IMG/VR virus record: IMGVR_UViG_3300045988_163731
DNA from: a virus
Length of the DNA: 63,234 bases
Strand: one strand, 5' to 3'
In this document: positions 35,301-57,252 of the stretch, in pieces
Layout: each line of letters begins with the position of its first letter
How positions within the stretch are numbered: the stretch's first letter is position 1
Position numbers and translations under genes: made by a program
The notes under the pieces: model-generated
Databases searched by the model: none
Seen by the model: only the letters and a program-made list of their open reading frames with translations
Told to the model about the DNA's origin: nothing

Positions 35301-38300
35301 GTGACAAGCACTCTGAACAGGGTGCTTTTTCTAATGGCAACAAATATTCCCGTGGTGTTGACCTTAGCCCATCGACTGATGGTGTGGCTATTGCTGCCAG
35401 AGCCAACAATAATCTTGTGGCCAACATGAAAGGCATTGTCAAAAAGGCAAATGCCAAGTTTAATCCATTCCACCATGAGGAGCTGGAAAACCTGCGTATT
35501 GATAAGCGTGACGAGAAGAAAGACCTTAACCTTATTGAGTATCAGTTTGTTTCCCCGACCAGGGAGAGCAAGAAGTACAAAGTTATCCAGCCGTTTGTTA
35601 TGAAAGGCAAGCAGGCTATGGCCAAGCAGGAAAAGCTAAGGTTCGAGTTCAATGAGGGCATGAACGAACTTGATAGGCTGCTAGGCTGGCGAGAGGGATT
35701 CCATCGGAATGACCCTAAGTTCAAAGAGCGAAAGGAAGCCCTGAACGAAATACTGTTAAAGGGCGACCTAGAGAGAAAGAATTTCACCAATAAAGAATTA
35801 ATTGAGGCTGGCTATGACGCTGAAACCATCAAGGGCTACCGCAAAATGAGAGCACTCCTGGATAAGGCTTGGAAACTTGCCAATGACATCAAGTCAAGAA
35901 TCAAGTATCAGAGCATAACCAGCTCCACCCTGCGCCGTGCCGAGGCTGATTTTGCAGACTTAAAGGATAAGAACCCATTTGCTGAAATCATCAGCAAGGT
36001 ACACAATCCTGATGGAACTGTGACCATTAACTACAAGGCACCTCATGTAAGGCGTGTGGCAAAGCAGACTGTGCTGCCATCCGAGCTGGAAAACCTCCGC
36101 AAGAACAAAGATGTTCACATTGTGGAAACCACCCAGAGCCTAAAGGGGACTACACAGGTAACTTACTATCAGCGTGAAGCAGGCATGGGCAAATTAGAGG
36201 GATATATCCCTCATATCTTCCACGGCTGGTATGTCTGCAAGGTAGACAAGGACGGCAAGGCCATTGTAGACAAGGACGGCAATGTAGCTATGGATAATAT
36301 CATGACTACAGCCAATTCCCTGTCAGAAGCAGCCAAGCTAGGGCGTGAGCTTGCCAAGGAAAACCCTAACGCTAACTATCGTGTTGTTCCACAGACGTTC
36401 AGCGCACCTGGGGCACAAGAACAGGCTATTGTCATGGGTGACTTTGACTATGCCAAGATAGTAGGCAAAGTGGCTGACTCTATGTCCATGAGTATAACTG
36501 ACGCTCAGGCAATGCTTGATAACACTGTCAAGATGAAAAATCGTGGCAGGTTCTATGGCTATGCTAAACAGCGTAAGGGCTTCAAGGGATTCGAGCAGAA
36601 TGTTTACCTTGCCACTATGAAGTATTTCAACCAGACTGCACGCTATGCAGCTATGGACTCTTTCAAGAGGGATTCCATTAGTATGTATAACCGCATTTTT
36701 GGAGCCTTTGACGATGAGAATGTAACAAAGAGAAGTGCTATGGCCAAGTGGACCAAGCAGTATATCAGTGATATGAATGGTACTCCAACTTGGATTGAGA
36801 AGATGATAAATAACACCTTGCACAATTTCGGGTTGGGCGAGGAGAGAGCAGGGGGCAGACCTGCCTTGTGGTTACAGCAAAAAATCTTCACATATCCTAT
36901 GACCATTCTAAAGCTGGGTGTATTTAACCCGTCCTCTGCCCTGCTGAACCTCACACAGCTCTTTAACCTTTATGGAGCTATGGGAGAAAAGGTACTTAGC
37001 CCACAGGCCTACCAGCGACTCCTACACAAAGGATTTGCTGATACATTCAGGGCAATGAACAATAAGGATAGTGAGCTGGGCAAGTTGCTATGGAAAGACC
37101 TTGGCCTTGATTACCAGATTGGCATGGATATAGCCTCTGGTTATTCCAATGCAGAGGTCAACAACCTTGCTTCCCTGCGAGGTTTTGCAGGTCGTTTGGC
37201 TGGCAAGTCTATGTATTTGTTCAGACAGACCGATGCCTTTGCCAGAGGTGTTACCTTACTGACAGCCTATAACAAGGCGTTAGACGAGGGTAAGAGCAAA
37301 GCAGAGGCCATTGAGTATGCCAAGGAGATAAACGACAAGGTAAACTTTGATGGCTCTGTTGCCGACGAGCCTACCATATTCAGAGCACTTGGCCCAATAT
37401 CCAAGGTTTTCTTGCAGTTCAAAAAATACCCTGTTAAGCAGTTAGAATTGTTCCAGGACTTCTACCTTGATGGCAGGGAACTTGGACTCAACCGCAAGCA
37501 GTCATGGATGCGAATGGCGAAATACATGGCACCATATATGGCAATGTCAGGCATGATGGGTATTCCGTTTGTCAGCCTAGCTAACGGATTGTTCTCCTAC
37601 CTTACAGGTATTTTTATCGGTGATGATGATTGGGATTGGGAGAAGAAAATTAAACAGTTCATGATTACGGAGTTTGGCGAGGACTGTCCTTTGACTCAGT
37701 GGTGGTTGTATGGTGCAGGTTCTTTCATTGGGCTAAACCTTGGCAGCCGTGTAGGTGTTGGCGATTTCTTAGGCTCCGACTCTTACAACTCCGCTGACGG
37801 ATTGGCTGGCCTTGCGTGGAATCAGACCACTCTTGGCTCCACTGTTAATCAGGTGCTAAAGCAGATGTCTTACCGCAATTATGCGGAAGCTCTAAAGGCT
37901 GTTAATCCTACTATGGGTAACATCGTACAGGCATACAAGGGCGAGGTTAGAACCACTAGAGGCCGTATGAAGTATCAGTATCAGAATATGGCTGAAAGAA
38001 TGTGGCGGGCCATTGGCTTTACTCCACTCAATGAAACTTTGGCTGGCGACCTTGCAAGCAATGAGTATGCTGAAAAGCAGGAGCAGACCAAGGCAAAGCA
38101 GGAAGCTGTAGATGATTTCTTAGCAAATCCAAGCAGTGAAAATGCTGACAGACTGAATGAGCTGGGTGTTACTCCAAAATCCTTGGAGAATGAATCAGCC
38201 AGACGGACAATGAACCGCCATCAGCTGAATGAGTTAGCTAAGGAAAAGGAAGCAGCAAAGAAAAAGAAGAAACCAAAGACATACTCTGCCAGCGATTACT

Positions 38301-38317
38301 TAAAAGCTGTGCAATAA
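29324..38317 (+). CDS. Giant (2997 aa) multidomain virion-associated protein. Carries a Gly-rich hydrophobic N-terminus, a Peptidase_M15-like domain, an SLT lytic-transglycosylase domain, and a central HExxH zincin-like motif.
   Basis: RBS AAGGAGGAAAG before the ATG. The M15 motifs are SGFRTREHN...HVGDGEHGDALDIV. The SLT motif is AIAEQESGFNQSAQSGAGAMGIMQLMPDTA. The zincin motif is IFVHEFVHWL. The ORF is unbroken. Confidence 0.8.
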   Translation: MAYSKYGLSFKNFTDSYGEWEANGGVEQANKAIDFKNLQNNSFNVRGLPGGTFGQSVIDSALGAAGNIDDFLGGPTGLGDYANNYVTAQEMAMGEKPEADFSWDYLINGLPRDTGNLIGSGIGLAAPIAAATLAAPFVGVGATAAGIGGALAGAGLESMAEGGQKMRDSLANGDSLETAQDKARTVAGENMALLAPTNILGLGALKKVGQGLKTAYNGGKAVSATGGALANYPKLSQAVDFAKGAGWAGLGAMNEGAQEAWQQGIQDSVEPDTDWGILPWNWNDEQTEAFESTIGPTALMAGAGGGARLAARKLGMSDVPQVDTAPQVNNNLFGAGTAEISTQGADIDEQVAHLKDGYQSVIPQVAGVLVNDFGIEGAQISSGFRTREHNREVGGVENSNHVGDGEHGDALDIVLPDGVSAETAEAIKQRFENSGVFDEVLFHDAGSGYHLHLGGLKTDNIGNSYGSYSGDADVDSAINEMAEKYNLDPALLAAIAEQESGFNQSAQSGAGAMGIMQLMPDTAEGLGVDPSDLRGNLEGGAKYLRQMLDKYDGDVEKALAAYNAGPGSLDSVNGDISQLSGETQKYIPSVMERYNKFKNKSGGGISSSGNILDWDSTNEDFSKLDFFPKDGEQSQGTVNEFLENLAKLEESDDKATKEKGRQAQDILQQYGDDTEKLTEKAKELGYQQIVDPAEVHGRIPMRRIVSTALDKGQVTFATKKAADIFASSPIGQTMERQGKTFKVTDNFKMNEQVNAISQQVYSDNTARTKTVKNGVMADAAAANRELNGQARPPIQQNDSVLTDEDRGRLISVMPNLPPQVQQQIQEALAENDIKSVRQLLDEATNSTPLNAETDIEKAKAITRALLQNPEATTSWDGNGAVRTAAIEGFINSNNLDGLNRANKYMAQNLRDKGINPLEVLNQNIEKPNTLPAVQGERMPSTDVQREEPAIEGTVEDTVITPPYNGNEVKVNKGEHNYYKWLRQNGFAQQDRAPEGAPQLAENKESTGTNSENQTNSPTSKNTEIELADGYSTESGKPLNEANEREFIVKPDGSKDFGEISSDISEATHGALKSAPIRLQVGNEVFGYIHLLKHASQMKQKGYDVMGYINHILNNFNQIYSQQSDKKPNRFVLYCKDDSKGFMPIDLEFEKGSDDYYTIVSAMPHRAKIKGTLLYDGSANPSIATTGDTLLAEADNKGGVSNTANTHGKNNVPSSTSTIPQNQDKGNENPNASNEPMRKELIEQAAANEDTWVNSKKSELHLEDDNDTVVKLTPQELKYYQDLIKKGVVAKPELYEEAQEDVGEMDDNVEMSKEQKQLYDESSDDRDMPSVEDEAEPTADEPRTKYSREKSPVDKKKPTHHNVECRDVKEQAKRYVQSRLDNGALKTLKPTDDVNTAIEKIIAPIKREVDNQAARYLETGHEPEYYQARLNMINYYKQLVDEIRRDFNAGDRQSDVYGRVINDTWFKQSAGEGSNLRKSVQKRNAEIETREDENSGVNSSSAKTGKTYENYNPKTQKVLDMMYKHSSRDKSAFSIEPINPHSAEAQKENGNSNTELDRLPKVPIAKLRQSEQRIVRFGKAIGVPVHFVESNETTNRGVFTHNGEIFINRKATVPAHSIFVHEFVHWLKASPENAGAYDVLHACLENSSGLFNEARINKYRNKIFDGNKMTDEEIVEEIICDAMTQTESAEKLMRAVNNVDGSLVTRIAGCLKAMWDKFCEYMNFKQHKMSNEQQLPNELSVAEFQRADTAFNKILMNLKNDNGEPVFHRVGTELLLRDNNAKPADTYQLNPISYTYAVAYSKENKDNKPIDEKAKNIQNEYEELSDEDKKIIDDKVQKRLAVFQNTVAEKIRQSFLERFTDSDKNLSIQELKNDSRERECLRVLYEQSSRYSGKVSNYKEALHTLVPWYDTNGKSRDQLVEDYNRFKRLAEEMLNYGTYTFTELCRQFCGRGRDNVIKNSGRNVESDRDLERRTKATKGLRQLFLEQELNNLKRDKHSEQGAFSNGNKYSRGVDLSPSTDGVAIAARANNNLVANMKGIVKKANAKFNPFHHEELENLRIDKRDEKKDLNLIEYQFVSPTRESKKYKVIQPFVMKGKQAMAKQEKLRFEFNEGMNELDRLLGWREGFHRNDPKFKERKEALNEILLKGDLERKNFTNKELIEAGYDAETIKGYRKMRALLDKAWKLANDIKSRIKYQSITSSTLRRAEADFADLKDKNPFAEIISKVHNPDGTVTINYKAPHVRRVAKQTVLPSELENLRKNKDVHIVETTQSLKGTTQVTYYQREAGMGKLEGYIPHIFHGWYVCKVDKDGKAIVDKDGNVAMDNIMTTANSLSEAAKLGRELAKENPNANYRVVPQTFSAPGAQEQAIVMGDFDYAKIVGKVADSMSMSITDAQAMLDNTVKMKNRGRFYGYAKQRKGFKGFEQNVYLATMKYFNQTARYAAMDSFKRDSISMYNRIFGAFDDENVTKRSAMAKWTKQYISDMNGTPTWIEKMINNTLHNFGLGEERAGGRPALWLQQKIFTYPMTILKLGVFNPSSALLNLTQLFNLYGAMGEKVLSPQAYQRLLHKGFADTFRAMNNKDSELGKLLWKDLGLDYQIGMDIASGYSNAEVNNLASLRGFAGRLAGKSMYLFRQTDAFARGVTLLTAYNKALDEGKSKAEAIEYAKEINDKVNFDGSVADEPTIFRALGPISKVFLQFKKYPVKQLELFQDFYLDGRELGLNRKQSWMRMAKYMAPYMAMSGMMGIPFVSLANGLFSYLTGIFIGDDDWDWEKKIKQFMITEFGEDCPLTQWWLYGAGSFIGLNLGSRVGVGDFLGSDSYNSADGLAGLAWNQTTLGSTVNQVLKQMSYRNYAEALKAVNPTMGNIVQAYKGEVRTTRGRMKYQYQNMAERMWRAIGFTPLNETLAGDLASNEYAEKQEQTKAKQEAVDDFLANPSSENADRLNELGVTPKSLENESARRTMNRHQLNELAKEKEAAKKKKKPKTYSASDYLKAVQ

Positions 38318-39223: not shown

Positions 39224-39519
39224 TCACCGCCTATTCACAATCATTTTACCATACTTGGGCTTTTTTGCAAACAAAAAGAACCCTGCCGTCTGATACAGGG
39301 TTCTTCTTGCTTGCTATTCATTTTAGAGAGTTCAGCCATTGCGTGGCAATTAACTACTCTTTTATTATACATCAAGTATTTCAAAAATGCAAATATTATT
39401 TTATTGCTACTTATGCTATTTATGTTCAATTAATTATTTTGATATTTAATTGCTAGTTTTAAAAGTTTTGTTCATTAGAAATGTAGAAAAAATAATTTAG
39501 GATTTGAGAAAATTTTCCT

Positions 39520-39575: not shown

Positions 39576-39746
39576 AATGTTGGCAAAAAAAATTGGTCGC
39601 CCAGTCGTTGGGCAACCCAAACCAATAAAGCTGACTGTACGAGTAACGGAACAGGCTTTACAGGCATTAGATACATATTGTACTAAACATAATTTATCTC
39701 GTGCTGATGGCGTACGGTTAGCCCTTAACGACTTGCGAAACAAATA
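39576..39746 (+). CDS. Small ribbon-helix-helix-like protein (57 aa), paralogous in type to 7059-7235
   Basis: RBS AAGTGAGGTG before the ATG at 39576. Product is MLAKKIGRPVVGQPKPIKLTVRVTEQALQALDTYCTKHNLSRADGVRLALNDLRNK. Confidence 0.5.
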
Positions 39747-39864
39747 AAGAAGTTCGCCCCTCCGACCAAGAACGAGCGAACTTCACAAGAAAGGAAAAGA
39801 ATACTTTCCTCAAATCTATTTTATCATGAGGTCAGTATTCTTTCAATAAGAAAGGAAAACTGCA

Positions 39865-40806
39865 ATGACAAATATTTTAAACCATGATAATGTAAAACCT
39901 GTAGTAGCTGTAGCCACTGAATACATTGTTGATTACCATCAGGCTGATAGAGCTGTATTGAATCAATTAGTTACCAGCAGTCAGATAGTAGCGTTTTATT
40001 TCAATAAACAGCACAAGCATGTACTTCGAGCAATAGACAATATCATTGCTGAATTTTCAGCGATGACCTCAGAAAACATCAAAGCCCAAAATTGGGCTTT
40101 GACCTCTATGTTCTATACAGCTTCGTACAAGACAGGCACAGGCAAACGCTATCCAATGTACTTTATGAACAGGGATGGATTCTCTCTGCTGGCAATGGGC
40201 TTCACCGGGAAGAAAGCCTTGGAATGGAAGATACGGTATATCCAGGCTTTCAATGAAATGGAAAGGAAGCTGAAAGAACAGGGTATGCTCAAAAATGAGC
40301 ATACCCCTAAACATTCCTCGGCTAACAGCAAGGCTCCCGATGTCGCTCCACCAGAGGTACTGGCACAGGCCAGAGCCAAGACCATGTTAATGAACGCAAG
40401 GACTAGACAGGCAAAGCTATGGAAAACATTAGCTGACGAATCCACAGGAACCTACAGGGAGATTTGCAAAGTGTATGCTGCCAATATCCTAGCAGGGAAA
40501 GAAGTATTGCCACTACCCAAGCCACCCCAAAAGACAATGACTGCAACGGAGCTGGGAGAGGCAACTGGGCTGACTGCAATGAATGTAGGCCTGCTGGCTA
40601 ATAAGTACAATCTAAAAACTGCCGCCTTTGGCCAGTGGGTGTACGATACATTGAAAAATGGCAGGCAGGTAGAATCGTTCAGATACTATGAGTCTGCCAT
40701 ACCGGTAATCAAGGAAATAGCAGAGGCAGAGAGAAAGAATAAAAAGCTGGTAATTAAGACGCCCCTAGCGGAGCTTTTAGGGGATATTATCATATTCACT
40801 AAATGA
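39865..40806 (+). CDS. Phage regulatory protein Rha (N-terminal) with an antirepressor C-terminal domain
   Basis: KRYPMYFMNRDGFSLLAMGFTGKKALEWKIRYIQAFNEME is the Rha signature. The C-terminal half aligns with the C-terminus of 6161-6940. Confidence 0.85.
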   Translation: MTNILNHDNVKPVVAVATEYIVDYHQADRAVLNQLVTSSQIVAFYFNKQHKHVLRAIDNIIAEFSAMTSENIKAQNWALTSMFYTASYKTGTGKRYPMYFMNRDGFSLLAMGFTGKKALEWKIRYIQAFNEMERKLKEQGMLKNEHTPKHSSANSKAPDVAPPEVLAQARAKTMLMNARTRQAKLWKTLADESTGTYREICKVYAANILAGKEVLPLPKPPQKTMTATELGEATGLTAMNVGLLANKYNLKTAAFGQWVYDTLKNGRQVESFRYYESAIPVIKEIAEAERKNKKLVIKTPLAELLGDIIIFTK

Positions 40807-41055
40807 TTGTATGGCCTACAGTCTTTACCCCGCTTGTAGGGGCTGTAGGCCTAAATCAGGGCAAAGAAAAACAACCTGCTCTCGGATACTCGAACTAAAG
40901 AAGAACAGGTTGCTTTTCTCTCACGTAGCCCTAATGGGAATAGACTTTTGAAGAAACGTACCGAAAAAAATTTAAGGGATAATTCTCTTTTATTATAGCA
41001 AAACTAGCAATTAATTTCAAGAGTTTTATTTGCTAATATTGCTAAAGTTGAACAA

Positions 41056-41367
41056 TTATTGTCCAAACATTTTCTTTGACATTAATTCAAACTGCTGGAG
41101 AATAGGCTTCCATTGCTCCATGTGGGAATCTATCAGGCCTTTCATGAATTGGTTTACGGATACATTGTTAATCTTTGCCAGCTGCTTTATGGCTTCGATT
41201 TGTTCCTCTGGGACAATAAGGTGAAGATGTTTTAACTCTACATCTGGGTTGTCAGGTTTCCTGCCTCTTTTCTTTGGCTCCTCCAGCTTGGGTTTTGTGA
41301 TTATATCCTTGGCAGCCTCTTTGTAAACATCAAAAGGGCTAGCAACTTTACTAAAATCTTTCGCCAT
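41056..41367 (-). CDS. ParG-like RHH partition/centromere-binding protein
   Basis: C-terminal RHH HLIVPEEQIEAIKQLAKINNVSVNQFMKGLI. Start codon overlaps the parA stop. RBS GGAGGTAG. Confidence 0.65.
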   Translation of the reverse strand: MAKDFSKVASPFDVYKEAAKDIITKPKLEEPKKRGRKPDNPDVELKHLHLIVPEEQIEAIKQLAKINNVSVNQFMKGLIDSHMEQWKPILQQFELMSKKMFGQ

Positions 41368-42167
41368 TATTCTACCTCCGTTTCAGGCTCTTGATAGTTG
41401 AAGATTTCTTGTATCAAACTCAGGTAGTCTTTAGCAGCATTGCTGTTTTTATCGTAAGAGAAAATATCCTTAACACTGGCTTGGGCTTCCTTAATGGCTA
41501 CATTTTCTCTGATACCTGTTTCAAAAACTTTTGTTTTCATTTTCGTGGCAGCACTCTTAAAGAGTTTGTTCATATCCTGTGCAATGCGGGTGCGCTCATT
41601 GTAGCGTGTCATTATTATGCCCGCTATCCTCAACCTGGAGTTGCAGTATTCCCTGACTGACTCAACGGTAGCATACAGCTGACTCACACCTTGCAGACTC
41701 AGAATGTCGGCCTGTGCAGGAATGATTACCCTGTCTGCTGCGGTCAGCGCATTTGCTGTCAGAGTCCCCAGGGCAGGTGGGGTGTCTATTATGATGAAGT
41801 CATACTCCTTGGCTTTACTGCTACCTTTAATGGCCTCCTGTAGCTTATATGACCTGCTTATAGGGTCTGTCAGTCTGCCATCAATGGAAGCAAGAAACAT
41901 GGAGGCAGGAACAATGTCATACTTCTCTAACTGCTGGATTCCCTCAAACAGCCTTGCCTCACCAACAAGGCACTCCAATATGGTAACGACATCAGCATTC
42001 TGAGTGTCAGTTACAGCGCCACATACTTGTGATAGATTACTCTGTGGGTCCAGGTCTAAAAGAAGAACCCTCTTTCCGTAATAGTCCCAAAGCCCAGCGG
42101 CCAGATTTTGAGCGGTGGTGGATTTTCCTACTCCTCCCTTTTGGTTAGCGATGGCGAAAACCTGCAT
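41367..42167 (-). CDS. parA: ParA/Soj-type partition ATPase
   Basis: Deviant Walker A NQKGGVGKSTT, plus LLLDLDPQ. Confidence 0.9.
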   Translation of the reverse strand: MQVFAIANQKGGVGKSTTAQNLAAGLWDYYGKRVLLLDLDPQSNLSQVCGAVTDTQNADVVTILECLVGEARLFEGIQQLEKYDIVPASMFLASIDGRLTDPISRSYKLQEAIKGSSKAKEYDFIIIDTPPALGTLTANALTAADRVIIPAQADILSLQGVSQLYATVESVREYCNSRLRIAGIIMTRYNERTRIAQDMNKLFKSAATKMKTKVFETGIRENVAIKEAQASVKDIFSYDKNSNAAKDYLSLIQEIFNYQEPETEVE

Positions 42168-42242
42168 GATAATACCCCTTTCAAAAAATTTTTTAAAAAT
42201 TTCTCCAAAACATTTATACAGAAAATACTTTCCAAACTGAAC

Positions 42243-42260
42243 ATAACTAGCATAACTAGC
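42243..42260. repeat. Tandem ATAACTAGC x2 (TAGCA-core sites) about 75 bp upstream of parA. Candidate partition operator/centromere site.
   Basis: Reverse complement GCTAGTTATGCTAGT recurs at 7405-7419. Core spacing is 9 bp. Confidence 0.5.
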
Positions 42261-42689
42261 AGCTTGGGAATGTTGGTATTTATGAATATTCTATACTATT
42301 ATTACATGAATAGCAACAAAAAACTCATGCTAGTTATGAATTAATTGTTCAATAATAGCATGAGTAACAATAATAGCAATAGTAGCAGTTTTTATTATTT
42401 CTATTCCTTGAATAAGTTGTTGTGTTGACAAGTTTCCAGAGATGTAGTATTATGTCTGTAAAAGTTCTTTGAAAATAAAAAAGAGCAGGTCTTGTATGAG
42501 ATGCCAATCTCATACAAGCCTTAGAGTACGATTGCACCATAATCATACACCAAGTTTTCCTGCATATCTTTATGTAGGAATTATAACATAAAAGGTCAGC
42601 GTTGGTCAATCGTACCAGCGCTTTTTTAGTGGAACAATTTAAATAAATTTCAAATAATAAAGTATAAACCAAAAAGATTAATAAGTAAG

Positions 42690-43230
42690 CATTTTGGTTG
42701 TTTGGCGGCGGTTCAGATTATTGTTAGTTTTCTTGACCGTTTGCGACAAGTGGAGAGCGACCACTATAAAAAGGCAGTCTAATCCAGCTCATGCAGAGAA
42801 TGGATTCGTCTTAACGCGATTGTCTTATGTTTGTGTTGCGTTACGGCGTCAGCAGGTAAAGAGTACCAAGCCTGTGTTAAGCCTAAGTCTTGGTATCAGG
42901 ATAAGCTGTTAGCAATAGCAGCGTGGCAAAAGGGAACGGGGGTATCGTCAGGGCCAGCACCATACTAACCAAGGCTGGGGAGGTACATCAGATAAGCGAA
43001 AGCCAAGCAGTCAGACGCTCGATAACGACTGTAGAACGATGTATGATAAGTCACAAACAGAAACACGGATACTCAAACGACGGGGCATTTTATATACTCT
43101 AGTTCCATGTTTAGGCAGACTTTCTTACGCTTGTCGTAGGAGTAGTCTGTCCAAAAGCCGTTGCTCTCACTCCGAAGCATTTTATATACTCTACAACTCC
43201 GAAGTCAACTCTATTCGTTAAAGTTTTTTT
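42690..43230 (+). ncRNA. Candidate structured non-coding RNA region (function unknown)
   Basis: About 540 bp with GC visibly above the neighbouring sequence. Internal 17-bp direct repeat GCATTTTATATACTCTA (about 43084 and 43173). Several hairpins. Only short R-rich ORFs that look spurious. Confidence 0.25.
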
Positions 43231-43264
43231 AATAGCTTGGCTCAATATTTCAGAATGAGTATAT

Positions 43265-43307
43265 ACTACATATAGTGTTTAATGGATAAAGGAATACTAT
43301 ATGTAGT
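43265..43307. promoter_or_regulatory. Perfect 12-bp inverted repeat ACTACATATAGT / ACTATATGTAGT with a 19-bp spacer, upstream of the lysis cassette
   Basis: Read directly in the sequence. Confidence 0.35.
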
Positions 43308-43512
43308 GGTTAATTTAATTAGTTAATTTTAATATGAGTAGTTAAGAATGATACGCATTATCTTCATTGTGTTAATATAAAACATTTGATATAATATAAT
43401 TGCGCACATAAATGAATAAGACCAGCCGTATTTGAAGCCTAACGCGCTCCCCAGATACGGCATGTCTTGTTTGTATATGTGCTTTTTTTATTATCTTTTT
43501 TGGAGGTGGCAC

Positions 43513-43773
43513 ATGGAGAATGAGGACGTCAGGGCTGAAATTCAAGAGATAAAAGAACAACTGATTCAGATTAGGACGATGCTTGAAATTTTAAACAAGC
43601 AGTTCGGTGAGAATCAGCCAAGGCTGGCGTATCTTGAACGTGAAACCGAGAGGCAGAAGGATAGTTTGAAGCAGGCCCACCATAGGATAGATGAGGTGAA
43701 CACCAGAACTTATTGGCTTATCGGTGCCTGCATTACACTGTTGGGTATTTTTGTTAGTGCATTTGTGAGGTGA
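43513..43773 (+). CDS. XhlA-like lysis-associated protein (coiled-coil plus C-terminal TM)
   Basis: RBS GGAGGTGG before the ATG at 43513. C-terminal TM span YWLIGACITLLGIFVSAFV. Confidence 0.55.
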   Translation: MENEDVRAEIQEIKEQLIQIRTMLEILNKQFGENQPRLAYLERETERQKDSLKQAHHRIDEVNTRTYWLIGACITLLGIFVSAFVR

Positions 43774-43779
43774 TTGCTT

Positions 43780-44061
43780 ATGGAGAAATTAAAACAGCTG
43801 TTTACGGCTATTCAGACAAAACAGATTGGGGTACTTGTAACAGTTATGATGGTATTCCTGGCACTGGTAATGTTTAGCTGGCTTATTGGCTTCTGGGCCA
43901 ATGGACTGTGTGGAGCGAAGTTTGATTTGGGTAGCTGTTGGCAGGGGATTTCTGCAGTAGTAGCAGGCATGACAGGTGTAGCTGCCTTGGCTGGCACAAA
44001 GTATGCCCGATACTATCTTGATAGCAAGTATAATTCTGGTGACGGGGAACGACCAGAGTGA
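43780..44061 (+). CDS. Holin-like protein (two TM spans)
   Basis: RBS GTGAGGTGA before the ATG at 43780. Two hydrophobic helices. Confidence 0.6.
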   Translation: MEKLKQLFTAIQTKQIGVLVTVMMVFLALVMFSWLIGFWANGLCGAKFDLGSCWQGISAVVAGMTGVAALAGTKYARYYLDSKYNSGDGERPE

Positions 44062-44079
44062 TTATTAGGAGGTAATATT

Positions 44080-44516
44080 ATGCAGAAGTATATTGGTGTA
44101 GAAAGATTTGAAGCAAGACCTATGACACTCGGCGATTATAATACTTATCGTGGCTGGCAGATGAAAATCCTGCCGACGAGGGATACCTTATAAAGTATCG
44201 TGGCGGCTATGAAAACTGGTGTTCCAAAGAGCATTTCGAAAAATCCTGTGTTGCGGAAGATGATTCTCCATTGATGGCCACAGTATTCAACATGAAGAGC
44301 CCCGATTATAAGAAACGTTTTGAAGCTGAGTACCGTCAGCTAGAAATTCGCTATGAGAGATTGAAGAAGATGTGTGAAAAGTGGGATGCAGGGGAGCTGG
44401 ATTTCACGCCTACATGTCCGAGAGCCACTTACGATAAGCAGATGGCAGCTATGGTTGACTATTTGAGTGTTTTGGAAGTGCGGGCACATTACGAAGATAT
44501 TGATTTGCAGGAGTGA
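44080..44516 (+). pseudogene. Gene split over two frames (44080-44193 and 44142/44271-44516). Either a frameshifted single gene or two small genes.
   Basis: The frame-0 continuation ...ENPADEGYLIKYRGGYENWCSKEHFEKS is open from 44142 with no ATG until 44271, and follows MQKYIGVERFEARPMTLGDYNTYRGW at a -1 offset. Confidence 0.3.
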
Positions 44517-45010
44517 TTGATATGCAGAGAGCAAAGATTATTGAAACTGATTTGAACTTTAGAGGGCTTGATAACCGCAGGGTGACTGATATGATTGTCA
44601 TTCATCATACGGGCAACCCGACTGATGATGATTTGTCTGCTCATGAAATACATGAGAGCCACAGGGCACAGGGGTGGGCTGGTATCGGCTATCACTACGT
44701 TGTGCGGAAAGATGGCAGCATTGAGAGAGGTCGTCCACATTGGACGATTGGTGCTCATGCTGTTGGCGAAAATTCTCATACTATTGGTATCCATGTGAGC
44801 GGTAACTTTGAAGTTGGTCAGCCAACTGACAAGCAGATTGAGGCATTGGCCATGTTGCTGGGGACTATCTGCTATGAGTACCAGCTCCCCATCGACGGCG
44901 ACCATGTAGTAGGACATCGTGATTTGATGGCTACTGCCTGCCCTGGTGAAAATCTGTACAACATTTTGCAGACTGTACGAGGCAAGGCTATTTGGTATCA
45001 GCAGAATTAA
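44513..45010 (+). CDS. Endolysin, N-acetylmuramoyl-L-alanine amidase (Amidase_2/PGRP fold)
   Basis: DMIVIHHTGNP...GIGYHYVV...GAHAVGENSHTIGIH...DGDHVVGHRDL...ACPG carries the zinc-amidase motifs. Confidence 0.9.
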   Translation: MIDMQRAKIIETDLNFRGLDNRRVTDMIVIHHTGNPTDDDLSAHEIHESHRAQGWAGIGYHYVVRKDGSIERGRPHWTIGAHAVGENSHTIGIHVSGNFEVGQPTDKQIEALAMLLGTICYEYQLPIDGDHVVGHRDLMATACPGENLYNILQTVRGKAIWYQQN

Positions 45011-45020
45011 GGAGAGCACA

Positions 45021-45632
45021 ATGCAGAAAATAAAGGATTGGATTTTAAATAACAAATATAAAACAGCCCAGATTATTACCGCTGTAATCCTGATTGTTCT
45101 GCTTGTATTTTTTGTGGTTAAGGCTTGGGAGGCGCACACAACCAAGCCTGTAACTACAATCCCACAGCAACAGGCGGAAACACCGGCAGGAGTTGAAAAG
45201 GCTGCCAGCAATGCTCACATCAAGCTGGATAGCGGGCAGACTAAGCAGGTGTCGGAAACTATCAGGGAAATCAGGGTGACTGAAAAGGAACCGGTATATA
45301 TAATCCAGACAACAGGTGACAAAGCTCAGGAGGCTTCTGAAAAGGCCAGTAAGCAGGAAAAGGCAGACTTCTCTATAGTCACTGATAAAGACCACCCAGA
45401 CGAGGCCGTAGAGCTTGACAAGTTGGATAAGAACACGACTGTTAATCTGAATCAGTATAATGTTCAGGCTTACAAGAAGCACATCAATACAATAGAGTAT
45501 TACCCTGCTGAAAAGATTGTTGGATATACCCACCAATGGAAAATCAGCAAAAGCGGAAAATATATGGGCGTTGGCGTCGATTATGATACGGACGACCAGC
45601 GTATAATGGCGAAAGTGACATATTCTTGGTGA
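45021..45632 (+). CDS. Membrane-anchored protein after the endolysin gene (possible lysis accessory)
   Basis: RBS GGAGAG before the ATG at 45021. TM span IITAVILIVLLVFFVV. Confidence 0.45.
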   Translation: MQKIKDWILNNKYKTAQIITAVILIVLLVFFVVKAWEAHTTKPVTTIPQQQAETPAGVEKAASNAHIKLDSGQTKQVSETIREIRVTEKEPVYIIQTTGDKAQEASEKASKQEKADFSIVTDKDHPDEAVELDKLDKNTTVNLNQYNVQAYKKHINTIEYYPAEKIVGYTHQWKISKSGKYMGVGVDYDTDDQRIMAKVTYSW

Positions 45633-45732
45633 GCTGATTTGCCTAGAAGTGTAACGATATAGATAATTTGTTCGGCAAAATATTGTCAAAAGGAACATAT
45701 AATCTGAACAAATTTACTAAATATATATTTGT

Positions 45733-45954
45733 TGCTATTATTGCTATTTCTGATTATCAAGAACATGAAAATCAATGTTAGCATAACTATCATAATTATC
45801 AAGATTATAGAATATAATTTATTTATCATTTATATCATGACTAGCATTGTTAACATGATTAGCATGAATATCAATGTTATCAATAATAGCATAAAATATA
45901 ATAATGAAAATAAGAACATAATTACCGATATTAGCATGATTAGCAAGTTTAGCA
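45733..45954. repeat. Iteron-like array of at least 10 TAGCA (and TGCTA) core sites, all in a 9-bp register. Candidate centromere (parS) or origin.
   Basis: TGCTA cores at 45733 and 45742. TAGCA cores at 45779, 45842, 45860, 45887, 45932, 45941 and 45950. Every inter-site distance is a multiple of 9. Confidence 0.7.
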
Positions 45955-45983
45955 TAATTACCAAAGAACGGAGGTGATATTTT

Positions 45984-46724
45984 ATGAGTTTTACAAAAGA
46001 TACACTTGGCACTACGGAATCTGTCGGCGGTGTAAGTCTGTTTGAATCCCTACGCTCTAACCAAAATGCCAGCGGAAGCTACAGTGGATTAATGTCTGCT
46101 GGTGACAAAGCTAAGCTGGATGGGATTGAGGAGGGAGCGAATAAATACATCCATCCTGATTCTCTGGCAGAAGTCGGAACATATATGCAGGTTGTTACTG
46201 ACGAACAAGGACATGTAGTTGGCGGCAGGCTGTTACAAGACAGTATGTTAGCTGATTATAGAATAGTGGATGCATATATTACCGATAACAAAGAGATTGT
46301 ACTTGGAGCTAAAAGGCTTAGGCCGCAAATGCCAGGTGAAAATATAAGCTGGAAGCAGGTTGTCGAAAGACCAAATACAATTGCGGGATATGGTATTAAA
46401 GATGCATATATAGCGGAAAGACTGACAGGAACTATTAATGAGAAAAACCTTCCAGCAAGACTGCAAATAGAGCTTGCTGGTCAGCAGTATGCGGATGGTA
46501 TCGATGCTAAGGTTGAAGCCTTAAAGACAATATCTTATGAAAACTTTAGATATCTGTTTGACGAGATGAAAAATATGGCAGATACGATTGCATTGTTAGC
46601 GAAACAGCTCAGCAATATGCAGAGCAAGTTAGATAATATGAGCGGTTCAGGGGGTTCAGGAGGGACATGCCAATGCACCGATGAAGATGTACAAGACACA
46701 GATGTTGACCAGATATTTAACTAA
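45984..46724 (+). CDS. Tail-fibre protein (contains an LMSAGDKAKLDGIE fibre motif)
   Basis: RBS GGAGGTGA before the ATG. The SA.DK.KLD motif is typical of phage tail fibres. Confidence 0.5.
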   Translation: MSFTKDTLGTTESVGGVSLFESLRSNQNASGSYSGLMSAGDKAKLDGIEEGANKYIHPDSLAEVGTYMQVVTDEQGHVVGGRLLQDSMLADYRIVDAYITDNKEIVLGAKRLRPQMPGENISWKQVVERPNTIAGYGIKDAYIAERLTGTINEKNLPARLQIELAGQQYADGIDAKVEALKTISYENFRYLFDEMKNMADTIALLAKQLSNMQSKLDNMSGSGGSGGTCQCTDEDVQDTDVDQIFN

Positions 46725-47672: not shown

Positions 47673-48542
47673 ATGTCAACTGATGCAAGTATTATTGGCG
47701 TTGAAAAAGGCCAATACAATGTACCGACAAAAGAAGCTGGTAAATATGTAACTGTTCACTGGGAAACAGAGGTAGGCCAGCTTACAGACCTCACAGGTAT
47801 TTCTCATAACGGCATCTACCGGGGTAAAGACCTGACTAACTATTATGCCAGCGGGGAAATGTCCAAGGCTATCGCAAATGGCAGCTTTAAGGATATCTAT
47901 ATCGGTGACTATATCACCAAGAATATCGTTGTTGGCGGTACTACCTATCAGGTTAAGTGGGAAGTTGCTGATATAGATTACTTCTATAAGTCCGGTGATG
48001 CTTCTTGTGATACTCACCATGTAGTCCTGCTTCCATCAAAGGCTGTGTTTGTTAATATTAAGATGAATGATACCGACACCACTAAAGGCGGCTATGCAGG
48101 CAGCAAAATGTGGAAAGAAACCATTCCTGCTGTTGTTACCGGTATCAAGGCCGCGTTTGGTGCAGACCATGTGGTAAAGCATAGAGAATTGCTGACTATC
48201 AAAGTTTCTGCCACTGCTCAGTCTGTTGCTGGAGCTGGTTGGACTGGCAGTAGTACAGGACAGGCTTGGGCTGATGTAGAAGCTAACATTCCGACTGAGC
48301 CTATGGTTTATGGCGGTACTGTATTTGGTTCTAGTGGATATGATGTTGGAAGTGGCGGGAAACAGTTTGCTATCTTCAGATTCAAGAAGGACTGTTATCC
48401 TGATAGAATGTGGTTTTGGCTTAGAGCGGTGGCTTCGGCGTCTAGGTTCTGCCGCGTCAGCGCTAGTGGCTTTGCGAGCTCCCACGATGCTTCTATTTCG
48501 AACTCCTCTGGCGGCTGTCGCCCGTATTTCCTGTTCCGCTAA
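47673..48542 (+). CDS. DGR target protein (putative receptor-binding protein) with a C-terminal variable region
   Basis: Its 3' 100 bp is the VR. RBS AAGGAATG before the ATG. The C-terminus RAVASASRFCRVSASGFASSHDASISNSSGGCRPY corresponds to TR-encoded IAVASASRFCNVSENGNANYNDASNSNSSGGCRP. Confidence 0.8.
   Translation: MSTDASIIGVEKGQYNVPTKEAGKYVTVHWETEVGQLTDLTGISHNGIYRGKDLTNYYASGEMSKAIANGSFKDIYIGDYITKNIVVGGTTYQVKWEVADIDYFYKSGDASCDTHHVVLLPSKAVFVNIKMNDTDTTKGGYAGSKMWKETIPAVVTGIKAAFGADHVVKHRELLTIKVSATAQSVAGAGWTGSSTGQAWADVEANIPTEPMVYGGTVFGSSGYDVGSGGKQFAIFRFKKDCYPDRMWFWLRAVASASRFCRVSASGFASSHDASISNSSGGCRPYFLFR
48425..48524 (+). repeat. DGR variable repeat (VR)
   Basis: 100 bp, 88% identical to 49059-49158. 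All 12 mismatches lie opposite TR adenines. A GC hairpin GTCGCCCC-CTTC-GTGGGGCGAC follows 24 bp downstream. Confidence 0.85.
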
Positions 48543-48596
48543 CCTTGTCGTCGCCCCCTTCGTGGGGCGACATAATCGCCATTTTTAGGAGGTAAA

Positions 48597-49037
48597 ATGT
48601 CAGTATTAGCGAGAAATAGAAGTCTGTCGAAATTGGAGTTCTATACGACAGCTATAACTTTACGCAGAAAAATTACCAGAGAGCTTTTGATTAATTTTCA
48701 TATTAAGAAAAAGAATCAGGAGCTTGATGAATACTCAATTTGGCTGCTATCAAAACTTCGCGAGTCAATTTATGACATAATGCATGATATTGTACTTAAC
48801 ATCACGCGTGCGTATACAATCTGGGCTACAAGCCGTGCTGAAGCAGACGAAAGAAGGATAGCTCAGGACAGGGCTATTGCAGGGTGCGAAAGCATACTAA
48901 AAGAGCTGGAATTTGCTTATCAGGTACTGCCAGTAAGTGTTGAAAGGTATATGGTTTATGTAGAACTGGTTGAGAAAGAAATCGCCCTCATTAAAGGCTG
49001 GCGAAAATCAGACAACAAACGATATAAAAATTTATAA
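48597..49037 (+). CDS. avd: DGR accessory variability determinant (Avd-like small basic helical protein)
   Basis: 146-aa basic protein between the target gene and TR, the canonical Avd position. RBS AGGAGG before the ATG. Confidence 0.65.
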   Translation: MSVLARNRSLSKLEFYTTAITLRRKITRELLINFHIKKKNQELDEYSIWLLSKLRESIYDIMHDIVLNITRAYTIWATSRAEADERRIAQDRAIAGCESILKELEFAYQVLPVSVERYMVYVELVEKEIALIKGWRKSDNKRYKNL

Positions 49038-49058
49038 TTCTATAGGGTATCAGCTAAT

Positions 49059-49158
49059 AGCGGTGGCTTCGGCGTCTAGGTTCTGCAACGTCAGCGAAAA
49101 TGGCAATGCGAACTACAACGATGCTTCTAATTCGAACTCCTCTGGCGGCTGTCGCCCG
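49059..49158 (+). repeat. DGR template repeat (TR)
   Basis: Intergenic copy of the VR. Its AAC codons read as Asn in the VR frame. Confidence 0.85.
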
Positions 49159-49296
49159 CTTCTCATATCAGTCTACTCATAGACACATAACAGGGAATGA
49201 GCGGATATCCTTCCTTTAAAAGGTAAATAACAGTTGTGTGCAGTCCGTCTAAGGGCGCTGATTGCATATGCACAGCTATCCCCTAGGGGTTGATTA

Positions 49297-50490
49297 ATGA
49301 GAGATTTTACAAATGCAAATAGCTTGATGAGTGCCTACGAGCGTGTCAGAAAAACCAGCGGTTGGAAGGAAAGCACACAGCGGTATGGGCTTAATCTTTT
49401 GCGTGAAACCTACTGGTTACAGAAGGCTTTGCGGGAAAGAAACTACGCACAGCATGAGTGCAATACTTTCAAACTATGTGAAAGAGGTCATCTGAGGTTG
49501 GTAAAGGCTTTAGTCACAAGAGATATGGTTATGCAGCACTCTCTTTGCGATACGGTGCTTGTGCCAGAACTGCTAAAGTACATCATTCACGATAACGGCG
49601 CTAGCATAAAGGGCAAAGGCATTAGCTTTACAAGAAGGCGTTTTGAGCAACACCTTCGCTGGCATTATCGAAGATATAGTACCGAGGGGTATATTTTGAA
49701 AATTGACTTCAGGAAATATTTCGATAACATCCAGCATGGTATCTTGAAAAAGCTGATAGCCGAAAAGATACATAATGAAGATGTACAGTATGTATTGAAT
49801 GAAATTTTCAAAGCTAATGAGGTTGATGTCTCATACACTGATGACACGGACATTTTGCAAAAAGTGTTCAGTTCACTCGAGCAAGAAAAAATTGATACAG
49901 CGCTGCTTACCGGTAAAAGATTTATGCCTAAATCCTTAGGTATAGGTTCTCCGGTATCGCAGATTGCAGGTATCTTCTTTCCTTACAAAATAGACAATTT
50001 TTGTAAAACAGTTAAAGGCATTCATTGTTATGATGCATATATGGATGACAGAATTGTGATTCATAAGTCAAAAGAATTTTTGTGGAACTTGCTTGAAGAA
50101 ATAAAGGTACTTGCAGAAAAGCAGGGTATCACAATTCATCAAGATAAAACACAGATTATTAAGCTGTCCCATGGATTCACATTTCTAAAAACTAAATATA
50201 TTCTTACAGAAACCGGCAAAATAGTTAAGAAAATACCCCGCGATGTTGTTACAGTTGAGAGAAGAAAGCTCAAAAAGCTGGCCACACTGGTAGTATCGGG
50301 GGCTATGAGTCGGGAAAAATTCATTACACAGTATAAGTCGTGGAAAGGAGATAAGCAGAGATACTATAACGCTTATCATACTTTGAAAAATATGGATAAA
50401 ATTTTTAGGAGGCTACTAAAATGGATAACGCAACAAGAGAAACTATTAGACGCAAGCAGCAGGAAATCATCGACCTCATCGGAGAGCTGA
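49297..50490 (+). CDS. DGR reverse transcriptase
   Basis: YMDD box (CYDAYMDDRIVIH), DGR-type LGIGSPVSQIAGIFF motif, and ILKIDFRKYFDNI (RT motif 2). Confidence 0.9.
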   Translation: MRDFTNANSLMSAYERVRKTSGWKESTQRYGLNLLRETYWLQKALRERNYAQHECNTFKLCERGHLRLVKALVTRDMVMQHSLCDTVLVPELLKYIIHDNGASIKGKGISFTRRRFEQHLRWHYRRYSTEGYILKIDFRKYFDNIQHGILKKLIAEKIHNEDVQYVLNEIFKANEVDVSYTDDTDILQKVFSSLEQEKIDTALLTGKRFMPKSLGIGSPVSQIAGIFFPYKIDNFCKTVKGIHCYDAYMDDRIVIHKSKEFLWNLLEEIKVLAEKQGITIHQDKTQIIKLSHGFTFLKTKYILTETGKIVKKIPRDVVTVERRKLKKLATLVVSGAMSREKFITQYKSWKGDKQRYYNAYHTLKNMDKIFRRLLKWITQQEKLLDASSRKSSTSSES

Positions 50491-55321: not shown

Positions 55322-55993
55322 ATGTCAAGAGGAATATTAGTAATGGGGGAGAGTGGTTCTGGCAAGACAACAAGCCTGAGAACCCTTAACCCTGAAACAA
55401 CTTTTATTATTGAGTGTGACGGCAAGGGCCTGAGCTGGCGGGGTTGGAAAAACCAGTACGCCAAGGCCAAGAAGAATTATTTCGAGACTGACAATGCCCC
55501 GATGATAGAGGACTTGCTGGACAGGATTAATTCTGGCTTGCCAAATATCAAGGTAGTAGTAATAGACACTCTTAACATGATTATGGTGAATGATGAAATT
55601 CGCCGTATGAAAGAGAGGGGCTATGACAAGTGGGCAGATTTGGCTACTTGTATTTGGGGGTTGATTGATACAGCCCACAACCTGCGTGACGACCTGACTG
55701 TAGTGTGTATGGCACACACACAGACGGAAAGGGACGATTCGGGCTATCAGTTTACCAGAATGAAAACTTCTGGTAAGAAGCTGGACAAGCTGTGTGTAGA
55801 GAGTAAGTTCTCCACGGTACTGTTATCTAAGTGCCTTGACGGAGAGTATATCTTTGAAACGCAAGCGGATAAGAGTACAGCAAAAAGCCCTATGGGCTGC
55901 TTCGAAAAACAAATTCCTAATGACATGGATTTTGTCATTAGGAAAATGAATGAATATGAATATGGAGAATGTGAAAGCGAGGAAAAGAAATGA
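55322..55993 (+). CDS. AAA_24 / Sak4-like RecA-type recombination ATPase
   Basis: Walker A ILVMGESGSGKTT. Walker B VVVIDTLN. Confidence 0.8.
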   Translation: MSRGILVMGESGSGKTTSLRTLNPETTFIIECDGKGLSWRGWKNQYAKAKKNYFETDNAPMIEDLLDRINSGLPNIKVVVIDTLNMIMVNDEIRRMKERGYDKWADLATCIWGLIDTAHNLRDDLTVVCMAHTQTERDDSGYQFTRMKTSGKKLDKLCVESKFSTVLLSKCLDGEYIFETQADKSTAKSPMGCFEKQIPNDMDFVIRKMNEYEYGECESEEKK

Positions 55994-56580
55994 TTGAAAG
56001 ACCTAATGATTGGAATGAAGCCCCAGCAATTATTGGCGGTGCTAGAACCCTGCCAGCAGGCAATTATAAGTGCAAGATTGTAAATGTGGAAGATTCTCTT
56101 TCCAAGGCTGGCAATAAGATGTTAAAGATTTTTTTTGACATTGATGAGGGCGATTATGCAGGTATCTACATGGATAGATACCTCAGTGATAAAAAAAGTA
56201 ATGAGGGAGCAAATTATCCAAGTGCTGGAGTATATTACCAGCTCCTGGGAGAGGGACAGACTGGCAGATTGAAAGGCCTTGTGCAGTGTCTTGAAATGTC
56301 TAACCCAGCATTTAAGTGGAATTGGGATGAACATGCAATGGAGGGCTGTGTATTCGCTGGTCAGTTCCGTGAGGAAGAATATTTCAATCAGAAAGATGAG
56401 CGGAGAACTTCCACTAGACTGGTGTATATTCATCCTCTGGAAGAGCTGGCCAACCTCGATGTACTGCCAGCGAAGCAGGCTAGCAAGGCAGGTGCACCAC
56501 GAACCAGCGCAGATGCAGAACGACAGCTCGAGTCCATTTTTGGTGGGCCTGCTGCTCCACCTGAACAGATTCCATTCTAA
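55990..56580 (+). CDS. DUF669-like protein (ssDNA-binding candidate)
   Basis: Position in the Gp157-AAA_24-DUF669 triad. Confidence 0.55.
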   Translation: MIERPNDWNEAPAIIGGARTLPAGNYKCKIVNVEDSLSKAGNKMLKIFFDIDEGDYAGIYMDRYLSDKKSNEGANYPSAGVYYQLLGEGQTGRLKGLVQCLEMSNPAFKWNWDEHAMEGCVFAGQFREEEYFNQKDERRTSTRLVYIHPLEELANLDVLPAKQASKAGAPRTSADAERQLESIFGGPAAPPEQIPF

Positions 56581-57248
56581 TGTTACTCAGTGGCAGGGTG
56601 ATTGGTGCCAAGGGTGGAAACATATTTGTTTCTATCCCTGTCACCGACACCCAAAAGGAACAAATAGCAACCACTTCAAGGCCTGATGTGGTGGTTGAGT
56701 TTGAGGACGGCAGGCAGATAACAGTCAAGCAAAGGAAAAAAATCTATGTGCTGATAAAGTGCATAGCGGATTGGCAGGGGTACACTCCTACAGAGGTAAC
56801 AAAGGAACTGTTGAAATATGAGTTCATTTCCTCACCGATTAGGGAAGCTATTTCCTCTGACGATTCCTTTTCCTTGTCAGACTGTGATAGAACGACTGCA
56901 AGGCTGTTTATAACGTGGCTCATAGAGTTCTGCTTAACACATGATATACCATGTGGAGAACCGCTCTGGAAGCTCTGTGAGGATATTGAGAAGTATATGT
57001 GGGTGTGTGCAGTAACAAAGCATTGTGCAGTGTGTGGCAAAAAAGCAGAGCTGCACCACTATGACACTGTAGGCACCGGCAGAAACAGAAAAGAGATTTG
57101 TCACATCGGCATGAGGTGTTTACCTCTTTGCAGAGAGCACCATATCCAGATACACAATATCGGGCGCGATGAATTTTGCAAGAGATACATTCTGAAGCCG
57201 ATAAAGATAGACGAACAAATAGCACAAGCATATAAGTTAAAGGGGTGA
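56580..57248 (+). CDS. Cys/His-rich putative HNH-like nuclease / zinc-finger protein
   Basis: CAVCGKK...HHYD...CH...C..C.EHH cluster. Confidence 0.4.
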   Translation: MLLSGRVIGAKGGNIFVSIPVTDTQKEQIATTSRPDVVVEFEDGRQITVKQRKKIYVLIKCIADWQGYTPTEVTKELLKYEFISSPIREAISSDDSFSLSDCDRTTARLFITWLIEFCLTHDIPCGEPLWKLCEDIEKYMWVCAVTKHCAVCGKKAELHHYDTVGTGRNRKEICHIGMRCLPLCREHHIQIHNIGRDEFCKRYILKPIKIDEQIAQAYKLKG

Positions 57249-57252
57249 GAAC

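Follow-up and report, generated by a model that had tools for sequence, protein, structure and literature searches.

A phased 26-unit array of 9-bp repeats in a candidate phage-plasmid, most likely a centromere or operator of a type Ib ParA/RHH system

What is a long array of short repeats doing between the lysis and tail-fibre genes of a phage? The question is raised by a viral DNA of 63,234 nucleotides (the window, which is the whole stretch analysed here), in which a 351-bp spacer separates the last ORF of the lysis cassette (44946-45632) from a tail-fibre-like ORF (45984-46724). The GC content of this spacer is 24.5%, compared with 41.7% for the whole 63,234-nt stretch. An earlier note had drawn attention to TAGCA and TGCTA pentamers in the spacer, and had rightly placed them downstream of the lysis cassette and upstream of a tail-fibre-like gene and a DGR. 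The original observation is real and was understated: the array is larger than first described. We propose that it is most likely an accessory centromere (parS) or operator of a type Ib ParA/RHH system in a phage-plasmid, and probably serves as the principal centromere.

Layout and natural variation of the array

The spacer is largely made of repeats. Twenty-six contiguous 9-bp units fill positions 45731-45965 (235 bp). The first three are inverted (45731-45757, minus strand; reverse complements AATAGCAAC, AATAGCAAT and ATAATCAGA), and the 23 that follow are direct and contiguous (45759-45965, plus strand), in a register that is kept in four related loci (L001, L135, L136 and L141). The unit has the consensus A-W-T-A-n-C-A-W-n, with TAnCA as its core. 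TAGCA occurs seven times, TGCTA twice and TATCA six times, the rest of the boxes being TAACA, TACCA, GAACA and similar, and an exact TAGCA box on either strand is found in only nine of the 26 units. These nine are the pentamers that the earlier note had listed, all of which are present (TAGCA at 45779, 45842, 45860, 45887, 45932, 45941 and 45950; TGCTA at 45733 and 45742); its count of at least ten was too high. Its statement that every distance between sites is a multiple of 9 holds among the seven TAGCA sites and between the two TGCTA sites, and fails between the orientations, whose registers are 1 bp out of step (the distance from 45742 to 45779 is 37 bp). The same offset is present in L001.

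Within the 23 direct units, three box-rich blocks of five, eight and six units (45759-45803, 45822-45893 and 45912-45965) are separated by two box-poor stretches of 18 bp each (45804-45821 and 45894-45911), through which the register is kept. The array is preceded by a non-repeat, AT-rich leader (45633-45730) that comes and goes together with it and contains an inverted repeat (45657-45673 and 45706-45722, TTGTTC...GAACAA). At the other end, the last block overlaps a promoter-like TTAGCA-16-CATAAT just 5' of the ribosome-binding site of the tail-fibre gene.

Chance never approaches this phasing. Periodicity at 9, 18 and 27 bp was reported both by a repeat search and by TRF, and base identity in the array at these three lags is 0.57, 0.52 and 0.51, compared with ∼0.28 off period. 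We ran the shuffling control that had been named beforehand as a potential refutation, as Markov simulations (n=5000) of the 351-bp spacer with its own dinucleotide composition. The simulated spacers held a mean of 1.5 exact boxes (nine observed), at most four exact boxes in one register (seven observed) and at most six TAnCA/TGnTA boxes in one register (15 observed). Simulations of the whole stretch filled no more than three of six phased slots, and the array fills all six. Moreover, same-orientation TAGCA pairs at exactly 9 bp occur six times outside the focal array, where 0.19 are expected (Poisson p ∼6e-8), and all six (at 7403, 39405, 40996, 41031, 42248 and 42374) are intergenic.

A periodic sequence could be a minisatellite, made by slippage and without function, or this one could encode an 82-aa ORF (45729-45977). 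An open frame on the plus strand does span the array, and a deletion of exactly one 9-bp unit in L136 (alignment columns 190-198) shows that slippage happens. The array also diverges faster than its surroundings, differing from L001 at 14% of positions, against 3.9% for the neighbouring gene. Nevertheless, we consider this pair of explanations highly improbable. The ORF is stopped by an in-frame TAA in L001, and all six frames compared with L001 have 21-26 nonsynonymous and 3-9 synonymous codon changes, against 5 and 20 in the neighbouring gene, so the coding reading was rejected. Constraint falls on the box positions and drift on the spacer positions: between relatives, unit positions 3, 4 and 6 (T, A and C) changed 1, 2 and 0 times, compared with 3-5 changes at each of positions 2, 5, 8 and 9. 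Furthermore, the box is common to four other intergenic sites and is restricted to parA-carrying relatives. Judged from these alignments, the array is evolving by unit slippage and point drift.

We also rejected the idea that the array is a DGR repeat. The only long repeat pair is 48412-48524 and 49046-49158; no second copy of the array exists, and the positions at which it differs from L001 are not biased towards adenine. Rfam placed no family in or near the array, its sole match in the whole genome being RAGATH-18, and no tRNAs were found. The DGR itself is complete (47673-50490). It comprises a VR (48412-48524) in the target gene, a 146-aa accessory ORF (48597-49037), a TR (49046-49158) that is 86% identical to the VR, and a reverse transcriptase gene (49297-50490).

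Natural variants tie the array to parA. A homologue of the upstream lysis gene is present in 15 metagenomic loci. In L135, L136 and L141, as in L001, parA precedes this gene and the array follows it, with sites in one register within each locus. The array is present in five of the six relatives of the lysis cassette that are parA-positive (these are related, non-independent genomes). In relatives without parA in reach (L137, L138, L140 and L142-L145), the array and phased TAGCA pairs are both absent. The sixth parA-positive relative is L139. Its ParA is 99.5% identical and it has the same parA-proximal sites, yet the entire 315-bp leader and array are absent (L139 3642-3750 aligned with 45633-45965), leaving 37 bp from the lysis stop codon to the tail-fibre ATG. 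The array is therefore dispensable, and a five-unit array upstream of parA (described below) may be the true centromere. Together, the periodic constraint, the 9-bp indels, the linkage to parA and the example of L139 describe a constrained periodic DNA site that is tied to partition genes and can be lost.

One human-gut contig (ORPK01000052, 100.7 kb) contains two versions of the lysis cassette 50 kb apart, L135 with parA and the array and L143 without. It may hold two related prophages or be a chimeric assembly, a point that bears on whether these phages are always extrachromosomal.

The TAGCA box, parA and the 103-aa partner

The same box recurs elsewhere in the genome. It forms 9-bp pairs and quartets 5' of parA, 3' of the gene encoding a 103-aa partner protein and 5' of two other operons. 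All of the additional sites in the earlier note are present (42248/42257, 7403/7412, 40996/41005, 41031/41040 and 39451), and to these we add 39405/39414, 42311, 42328 (inverted) and 42356/42374/42383.

The sites cluster most densely around the partition genes. Upstream of parA are five contiguous direct units (42345-42389, plus strand; TTGTTCAAT, AATAGCATG, AGTAACAAT, AATAGCAAT and AGTAGCAGT), which are kept in L135, L136, L139, L141, L003 and L004. The parA-proximal sites (42246-42334) comprise a pair (ACTAGCATA-ACTAGCAGC, 42246-42263), a single unit (42309-42317) whose box falls on a TTGCTA that is -35-like for the parA strand, and an inverted unit (42326-42334); they are invariant among TAGCA-type relatives. 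Just 3' of the partner gene stop codon (40994-41055), two direct units (40994-41011) face two or three inverted units (41029-41055), a head-to-head layout that is also found in L003, L004 and the CAACA-type relatives introduced below. In total there are nine units 5' of parA and four or five 3' of the partner gene, and both sets are kept in six relatives. Farther away, an inverted pair (39403-39420) and a single TGCTA at 39451 (39403-39456, minus strand) lie 5' of an operon encoding a small RHH protein and a Rha-like protein (39577-40806), and another inverted pair (7401-7418, minus strand; reverse complements ACTAGCAAT and ACTAGCATA) lies 30 bp 5' of the ATG of a Mrr_cat-domain gene (7448-8668).

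Two further motifs, TTGTTCAA and TTGAACAA, sit in register at the edges of TAGCA arrays (41047-41055, 42345-42353 and 39421-39429) and also occur in the leader (45668-45673 and 45706-45711). In the CAACA-type relatives, inverted units give way to direct ones at these motifs, which may be low-affinity sites or remnants of an ancestral box.

The interval between parA and the holin gene has other features. Two strong promoter-like sites face each other (TTGACA-17-TATTAT at 42425 on the plus strand and TTGACC-18-TATAAT at 42609 on the minus strand), accompanied by a terminator-like hairpin (42598-42622), and L003 and L004 contain similar sequence; the segment 42425-42625 may be a sense/antisense small-RNA pair. 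Beyond it, 540 bp of ordinary GC content (42690-43230) contained no notable ORF and no Rfam match (E <= 1), and was predicted to fold no more stably than expected (z = 0.5). The matching interval in L003 holds two small called genes.

The genes at the centre of these sites resemble a partition operon. The parA gene (41367-42167, minus strand) encodes a 266-aa Walker-type ATPase without an N-terminal DNA-binding domain, which matches Pfam AAA_31 (1.4e-49, spanning residues 1-181), CbiA and the ParA-like phrog_164. Among solved structures, the best matches are ParA/Soj proteins (255-276 aa), aligned over their full length. Directly after parA is the gene for the 103-aa partner (41056-41367, minus strand), whose start overlaps the parA stop codon (41367). 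At its N-terminus the partner carries a conserved peptide (MAKDFSK..NPF); a flexible, basic linker (KKRGRKP) and a predicted C-terminal RHH domain follow, a layout shared with type Ib centromere-binding proteins (PMC3074162).

The fold of the partner was predicted with AlphaFold (AF2), as a monomer and from a 16-sequence alignment. The RHH part of the model (about residues 46-100) has pLDDT values of 87-93, a range read over residues 51-90, and consists of a strand (LKHLHLIVP) and two helices (54-66 and 71-100); residues 1-45 are of low confidence. Its top 50 Foldseek matches in the PDB are almost exclusively RHH proteins, among them Arc, CopG, AmrZ, RHH antitoxins and ParG (1p94), with an rmsd of ∼1 Å over ∼41 residues and with E-values (0.07-2) that are weak because the RHH domain has only ∼45 aa. 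The family alignment has the same three parts: a conserved MAKKDFS..NPF peptide, a variable basic linker and a conserved RHH core.

Sequence searches were silent. The partner matches no Pfam family at E <= 0.01, and a family profile searched against all PDB sequences met only a ribosomal protein (E = 0.55). No matches to the 103-aa protein were returned by tblastn against 72,556 plasmids and 50,697 phages, or to positions 41000-46100 by megablast against phages. Lacking sequence similarity to ParG, omega or pCXC100 ParB, and to their Pfam models, the partner is thus an analogue with the same fold rather than a member of any of these families. The label 'ParG-like', which the earlier note had given it, suits its predicted fold and role but not its sequence, in which no ParG homology is detectable. 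Assignment to type Ib is based on the small Walker-type ParA, on a partner that is RHH according to the AF2 model and on the repeat array adjacent to the operon.

Distant homologues of the partner reveal how box and protein vary. A word-indexed protein search found only four close homologues, and an exhaustive search found 14 representatives, all of them small proteins. A genome scan with a six-sequence alignment added relatives in Anaerovibrio, Mitsuokella, Selenomonas and a Veillonellaceae MAG, so that the distant homologues come from Negativicutes genomes (Selenomonadaceae and Veillonellaceae) and human-gut metagenomes. Wherever the DNA context was recovered (L003-L005 and L007-L013), the homologue is encoded directly after parA, and 9-bp arrays lie 5' of parA, 3' of the partner gene or both, often with inverted units running up against direct ones. 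Across these loci the pitch stays at 9 bp, and the box varies with the beta-strand of the partner. The strand ELKHLHLIVP goes with TAGCA (this genome, L001-L004 and L135-L141), G(R/K)QH(M/I/L)HLI goes with CAACA or TCCAAC (L005 and L008-L013), and GKQSLHVILP goes with ACACA-type units (L007). When viral contigs were scanned for three phased TAGCA boxes, at least 120 matches were obtained, mostly unrelated (coding repeats or chance), and, the known relative aside, none of them came with a homologue of parA or of the partner.

The CAACA-type relatives have an additional feature. An inverted-then-direct 9-bp array is placed in frame within the partner gene itself (L012 9717-9790, L008 6132-6175 and L010 8121-8141). 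The in-gene array of L012 encodes DIGHIGTVGYVDNVEQQNQHIQQVQQ, and a 'VEQQxQ..IQQ' linker is found in all CAACA-type proteins. In these relatives the array of putative binding sites appears to double as coding sequence for a disordered linker.

From the sequence comparisons and the RHH model, we think it likely that the 103-aa protein binds the array. Another protein could do so instead, such as the small RHH repressor (39577-39747), the Rha-like protein, the cI-like repressor or a host protein, with the likeness to the parA-flanking sites being incidental; we regard this as very unlikely. There is indeed a second RHH-like gene, with TGCTA sites 5' of it. However, the 56-aa small RHH-like protein of L004 is only 36% identical, while its TAGCA arrays at parA are unchanged and its 103-aa protein is 98% identical. 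Moreover, no homologue of the small RHH protein was found near the arrays of distant relatives, and the arrays accompany parA and the partner in every lineage.

A candidate centromere in a late-gene region

The array is carried by what looks to be a phage-plasmid. The ends of the genome overlap (by at least 50 nt) and a TnpB-like ORF crosses the junction, which indicates a circular genome of ∼63.2 kb, although a circular assembly can also arise from permuted virion DNA. The gene content includes a terminase, a portal, a long structural block, a holin, an amidase, the DGR reverse transcriptase, a cI-like repressor, antirepressors and a replication module, with parA between the tail and lysis modules. 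No integrase was present among the ORFs searched, the sole recombinase being an IS607-type TnpA. It is this gene content that points to a phage-plasmid with a plasmid lifestyle.

Several other genes of the element were noted. The IS607-like element (61784-63234 joined to 1-612) comprises a MerR-HTH/Resolvase TnpA gene (61784-62452) and the 449-aa TnpB-like ORF over the junction, and has a RAGATH-18 RNA (540-612, 67 bits) at its 3' end. Two defence-like genes are found in the early/lysogeny region, the Mrr_cat-domain gene (7448-8668) with its 5' TAGCA pair and a GmrSD_N-domain gene (8736-9455, minus strand). A single ORF of 2997 aa (29324-38317), presumably a giant tail or tape-measure-like protein, ends the structural module.

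The earlier note had suggested a centromere or operator family bound by the ParG-like RHH protein. Computationally this is the best-supported reading, on the strength of the RHH model, the flanking arrays, the co-variation of box and beta-strand and the co-occurrence with parA. The mechanism we infer covers binding, cooperativity, ParA activation and plasmid lifestyle. The ParA/RHH system would keep an integrase-less, circular, 63-kb temperate phage as a plasmid prophage. At every TAnCA box an RHH dimer would enter the major groove with its paired beta-strands, and the 4-bp AT-rich spacers would let adjacent dimers touch, so that the 5-8 contiguous units of each block would be coated cooperatively to give a protein-DNA filament. 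The flexible N-terminal tails (the MAK..F..NPF peptide and the basic patch) would stimulate nucleoid-bound ParA-ATP, and plasmid copies would be moved and separated.

The short sites would have a different part to play. Those of 2-5 units (at parA, after the partner gene, 5' of the small-RHH/Rha operon and 5' of the Mrr-like gene) would be mainly operators, which would make the 103-aa protein an omega-like global regulator as well. By analogy with known systems, the pairs seem better suited to repression: they cover the promoter-like region of parA, follow the partner gene and precede both the RHH/Rha operon and the Mrr_cat gene.

How probable is it that the array is a centromere? We find this reasonably likely. 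In pSM19035, which has several parS copies on the plasmid, omega needs at least four contiguous repeats to activate ParA (PMC9499535). If that rule applies here, only the focal array, with its 5-8-unit blocks, and the five-unit array upstream of parA would qualify as centromeres. Counting against the centromere reading, the array is 3.6 kb from parA, and type Ib centromeres are normally upstream of the operon (PMC5016525). This distance, the overlap of the last block with a promoter-like site and the absence of the array from L139 leave room for a regulatory role.

Such a role would have the same protein binding the array as a silencer or roadblock, acting in the prophage on the tail-fibre/DGR promoter or on read-through from the lysis genes. 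A role of this omega-like, global-regulator kind is compatible with the centromere reading, and could apply alongside it or instead of it; we judge it possible, though unlikely. The array abuts the tail-fibre ribosome-binding site and has promoter-like hexamers inside it, TTAGCA itself being -35-like, and this very AT-rich spacer holds 14 promoter-like sites, where 4.0 would be expected from shuffled sequence. Small sites sharing this box sit directly at the probable promoters of the RHH/Rha operon, parA and the Mrr-like gene, and L139 indicates that the array is not required alongside parA. On the other hand, 26 units far exceed the need of any operator, and L139 expresses the same tail-fibre gene from its 37-bp junction, so that no promoter is needed there. 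A terminator scan of this AT-rich DNA found no terminator upstream of the array, and promoter-like matches are to be expected because the DNA has 24.5% GC and is made of TTAGCA/CATAAT-like units. It is a good deal more doubtful that the array is a dual-purpose element, in which occupancy by the partition protein gates the tail-fibre/DGR operon, and with it host-range diversification, in the plasmid-prophage state. If it were, the presence or absence of the array and its number of units would tune both stability and tropism switching.

The earlier description of the array as iteron-like is not supported. Tandem short repeats within an AT-rich spacer might suggest a replication origin, but the replication module (DnaD-like initiator, DnaC-like loader, Sak4 and SSB; 55322-58999) is 10 kb off, with the initiator and loader genes at 57253-58598. 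Typical iterons are 17-22 bp, much longer than the 9-bp unit. The repeats instead track the partition genes, flanking parA in all relatives, and the close relative L139 lacks the array. We therefore assign an iteron origin only the slightest chance.

The protein family, the box and the unusual location of the array are new here; its architecture is of a known type Ib centromere/operator kind. An unnamed family without a Pfam model (14 representative clusters) gains a testable predicted role: its members would be RHH adaptors that bind centromeres on an unvarying 9-bp pitch, with TAGCA, CAACA and ACACA as the three predicted specificities. The analysis also marks a group of DGR-carrying temperate phages of the human gut as probable phage-plasmids. 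The natural variants (no array, 25 units, 26 units and arrays in coding sequence) bear on the number of contiguous RHH sites that a ParA system requires and on whether a late operon can accommodate a centromere, and the in-gene arrays of the CAACA-type relatives would imply that 9-bp centromere arrays can double as coding sequence. These loci should be useful to partition and phage-plasmid specialists.

Comparison with known partition systems

The principle is not new, since pCXC100, TP228 and pSM19035 have already established such an architecture. The closest parallel in repeat length is pCXC100 of Leifsonia xyli, whose RHH ParB coats nine uninterrupted 9-bp direct repeats, with one RHH dimer per repeat that also reads half of each neighbouring repeat (PMC3074162). 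In both systems a small Walker-type ParA is paired with a small partner whose N-terminal half is flexible, whose C-terminal domain is RHH and in which no sequence motif can be recognised, and the array is made of unspaced, non-palindromic 9-bp units; cooperative coating by dimers is known for pCXC100 and would be expected here. They differ in that there is no detectable sequence homology and that our array has both orientations and 26 units rather than nine. Moreover, the largest array here is 3.6 kb from the operon, in the late-gene region of a phage, and small sites are scattered round the genome.

TP228 offers the closest parallel in site degeneracy. Its ParG coats degenerate 4-bp boxes with AT-rich spacers, direct and inverted, in centromere and operator alike, and inversion of sites is tolerated (PMC3130281). 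As in the TP228 ParF-ParG system (parH and OF), the boxes here are short and degenerate, the spacers are AT-rich and 4 bp long, both orientations occur and the organization is elastic. One RHH protein serves both a long array (the centromere) and a shorter promoter array (the operator) in TP228, and may do so here. However, the box here is 5 bp with a 9-bp period, compared with the 4-bp ACTC box and 4-bp spacers of ParG, the partner has no Pfam ParG match, and the ParA is Soj-like (266 aa) rather than ParF-like. Both TP228 arrays are directly upstream of the operon, unlike our focal array.

The delta/omega system of pSM19035 shares the dispersal of sites, with several contiguous arrays of short repeats in mixed orientation placed before different promoters (PMC9499535, PMC2441792). 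There, one RHH protein is both centromere binder and global repressor, as we propose for the 103-aa protein. The period here is 9 bp rather than the 7 bp of the heptads, the two genes are in one operon, and the carrier is a phage rather than a resistance plasmid.

The location among phage genes has its parallel in the plasmid-prophage N15, whose centromere sites are reportedly dispersed over the genome. N15 is a temperate phage kept as a plasmid, as we suppose for this one, and in both the known or candidate partition sites are found away from the par operon, amid phage genes. The machinery is different: N15 uses a type Ia SopA/SopB system, with an HTH ParB and single inverted-repeat sites, where this genome pairs a predicted RHH protein with long tandem arrays.
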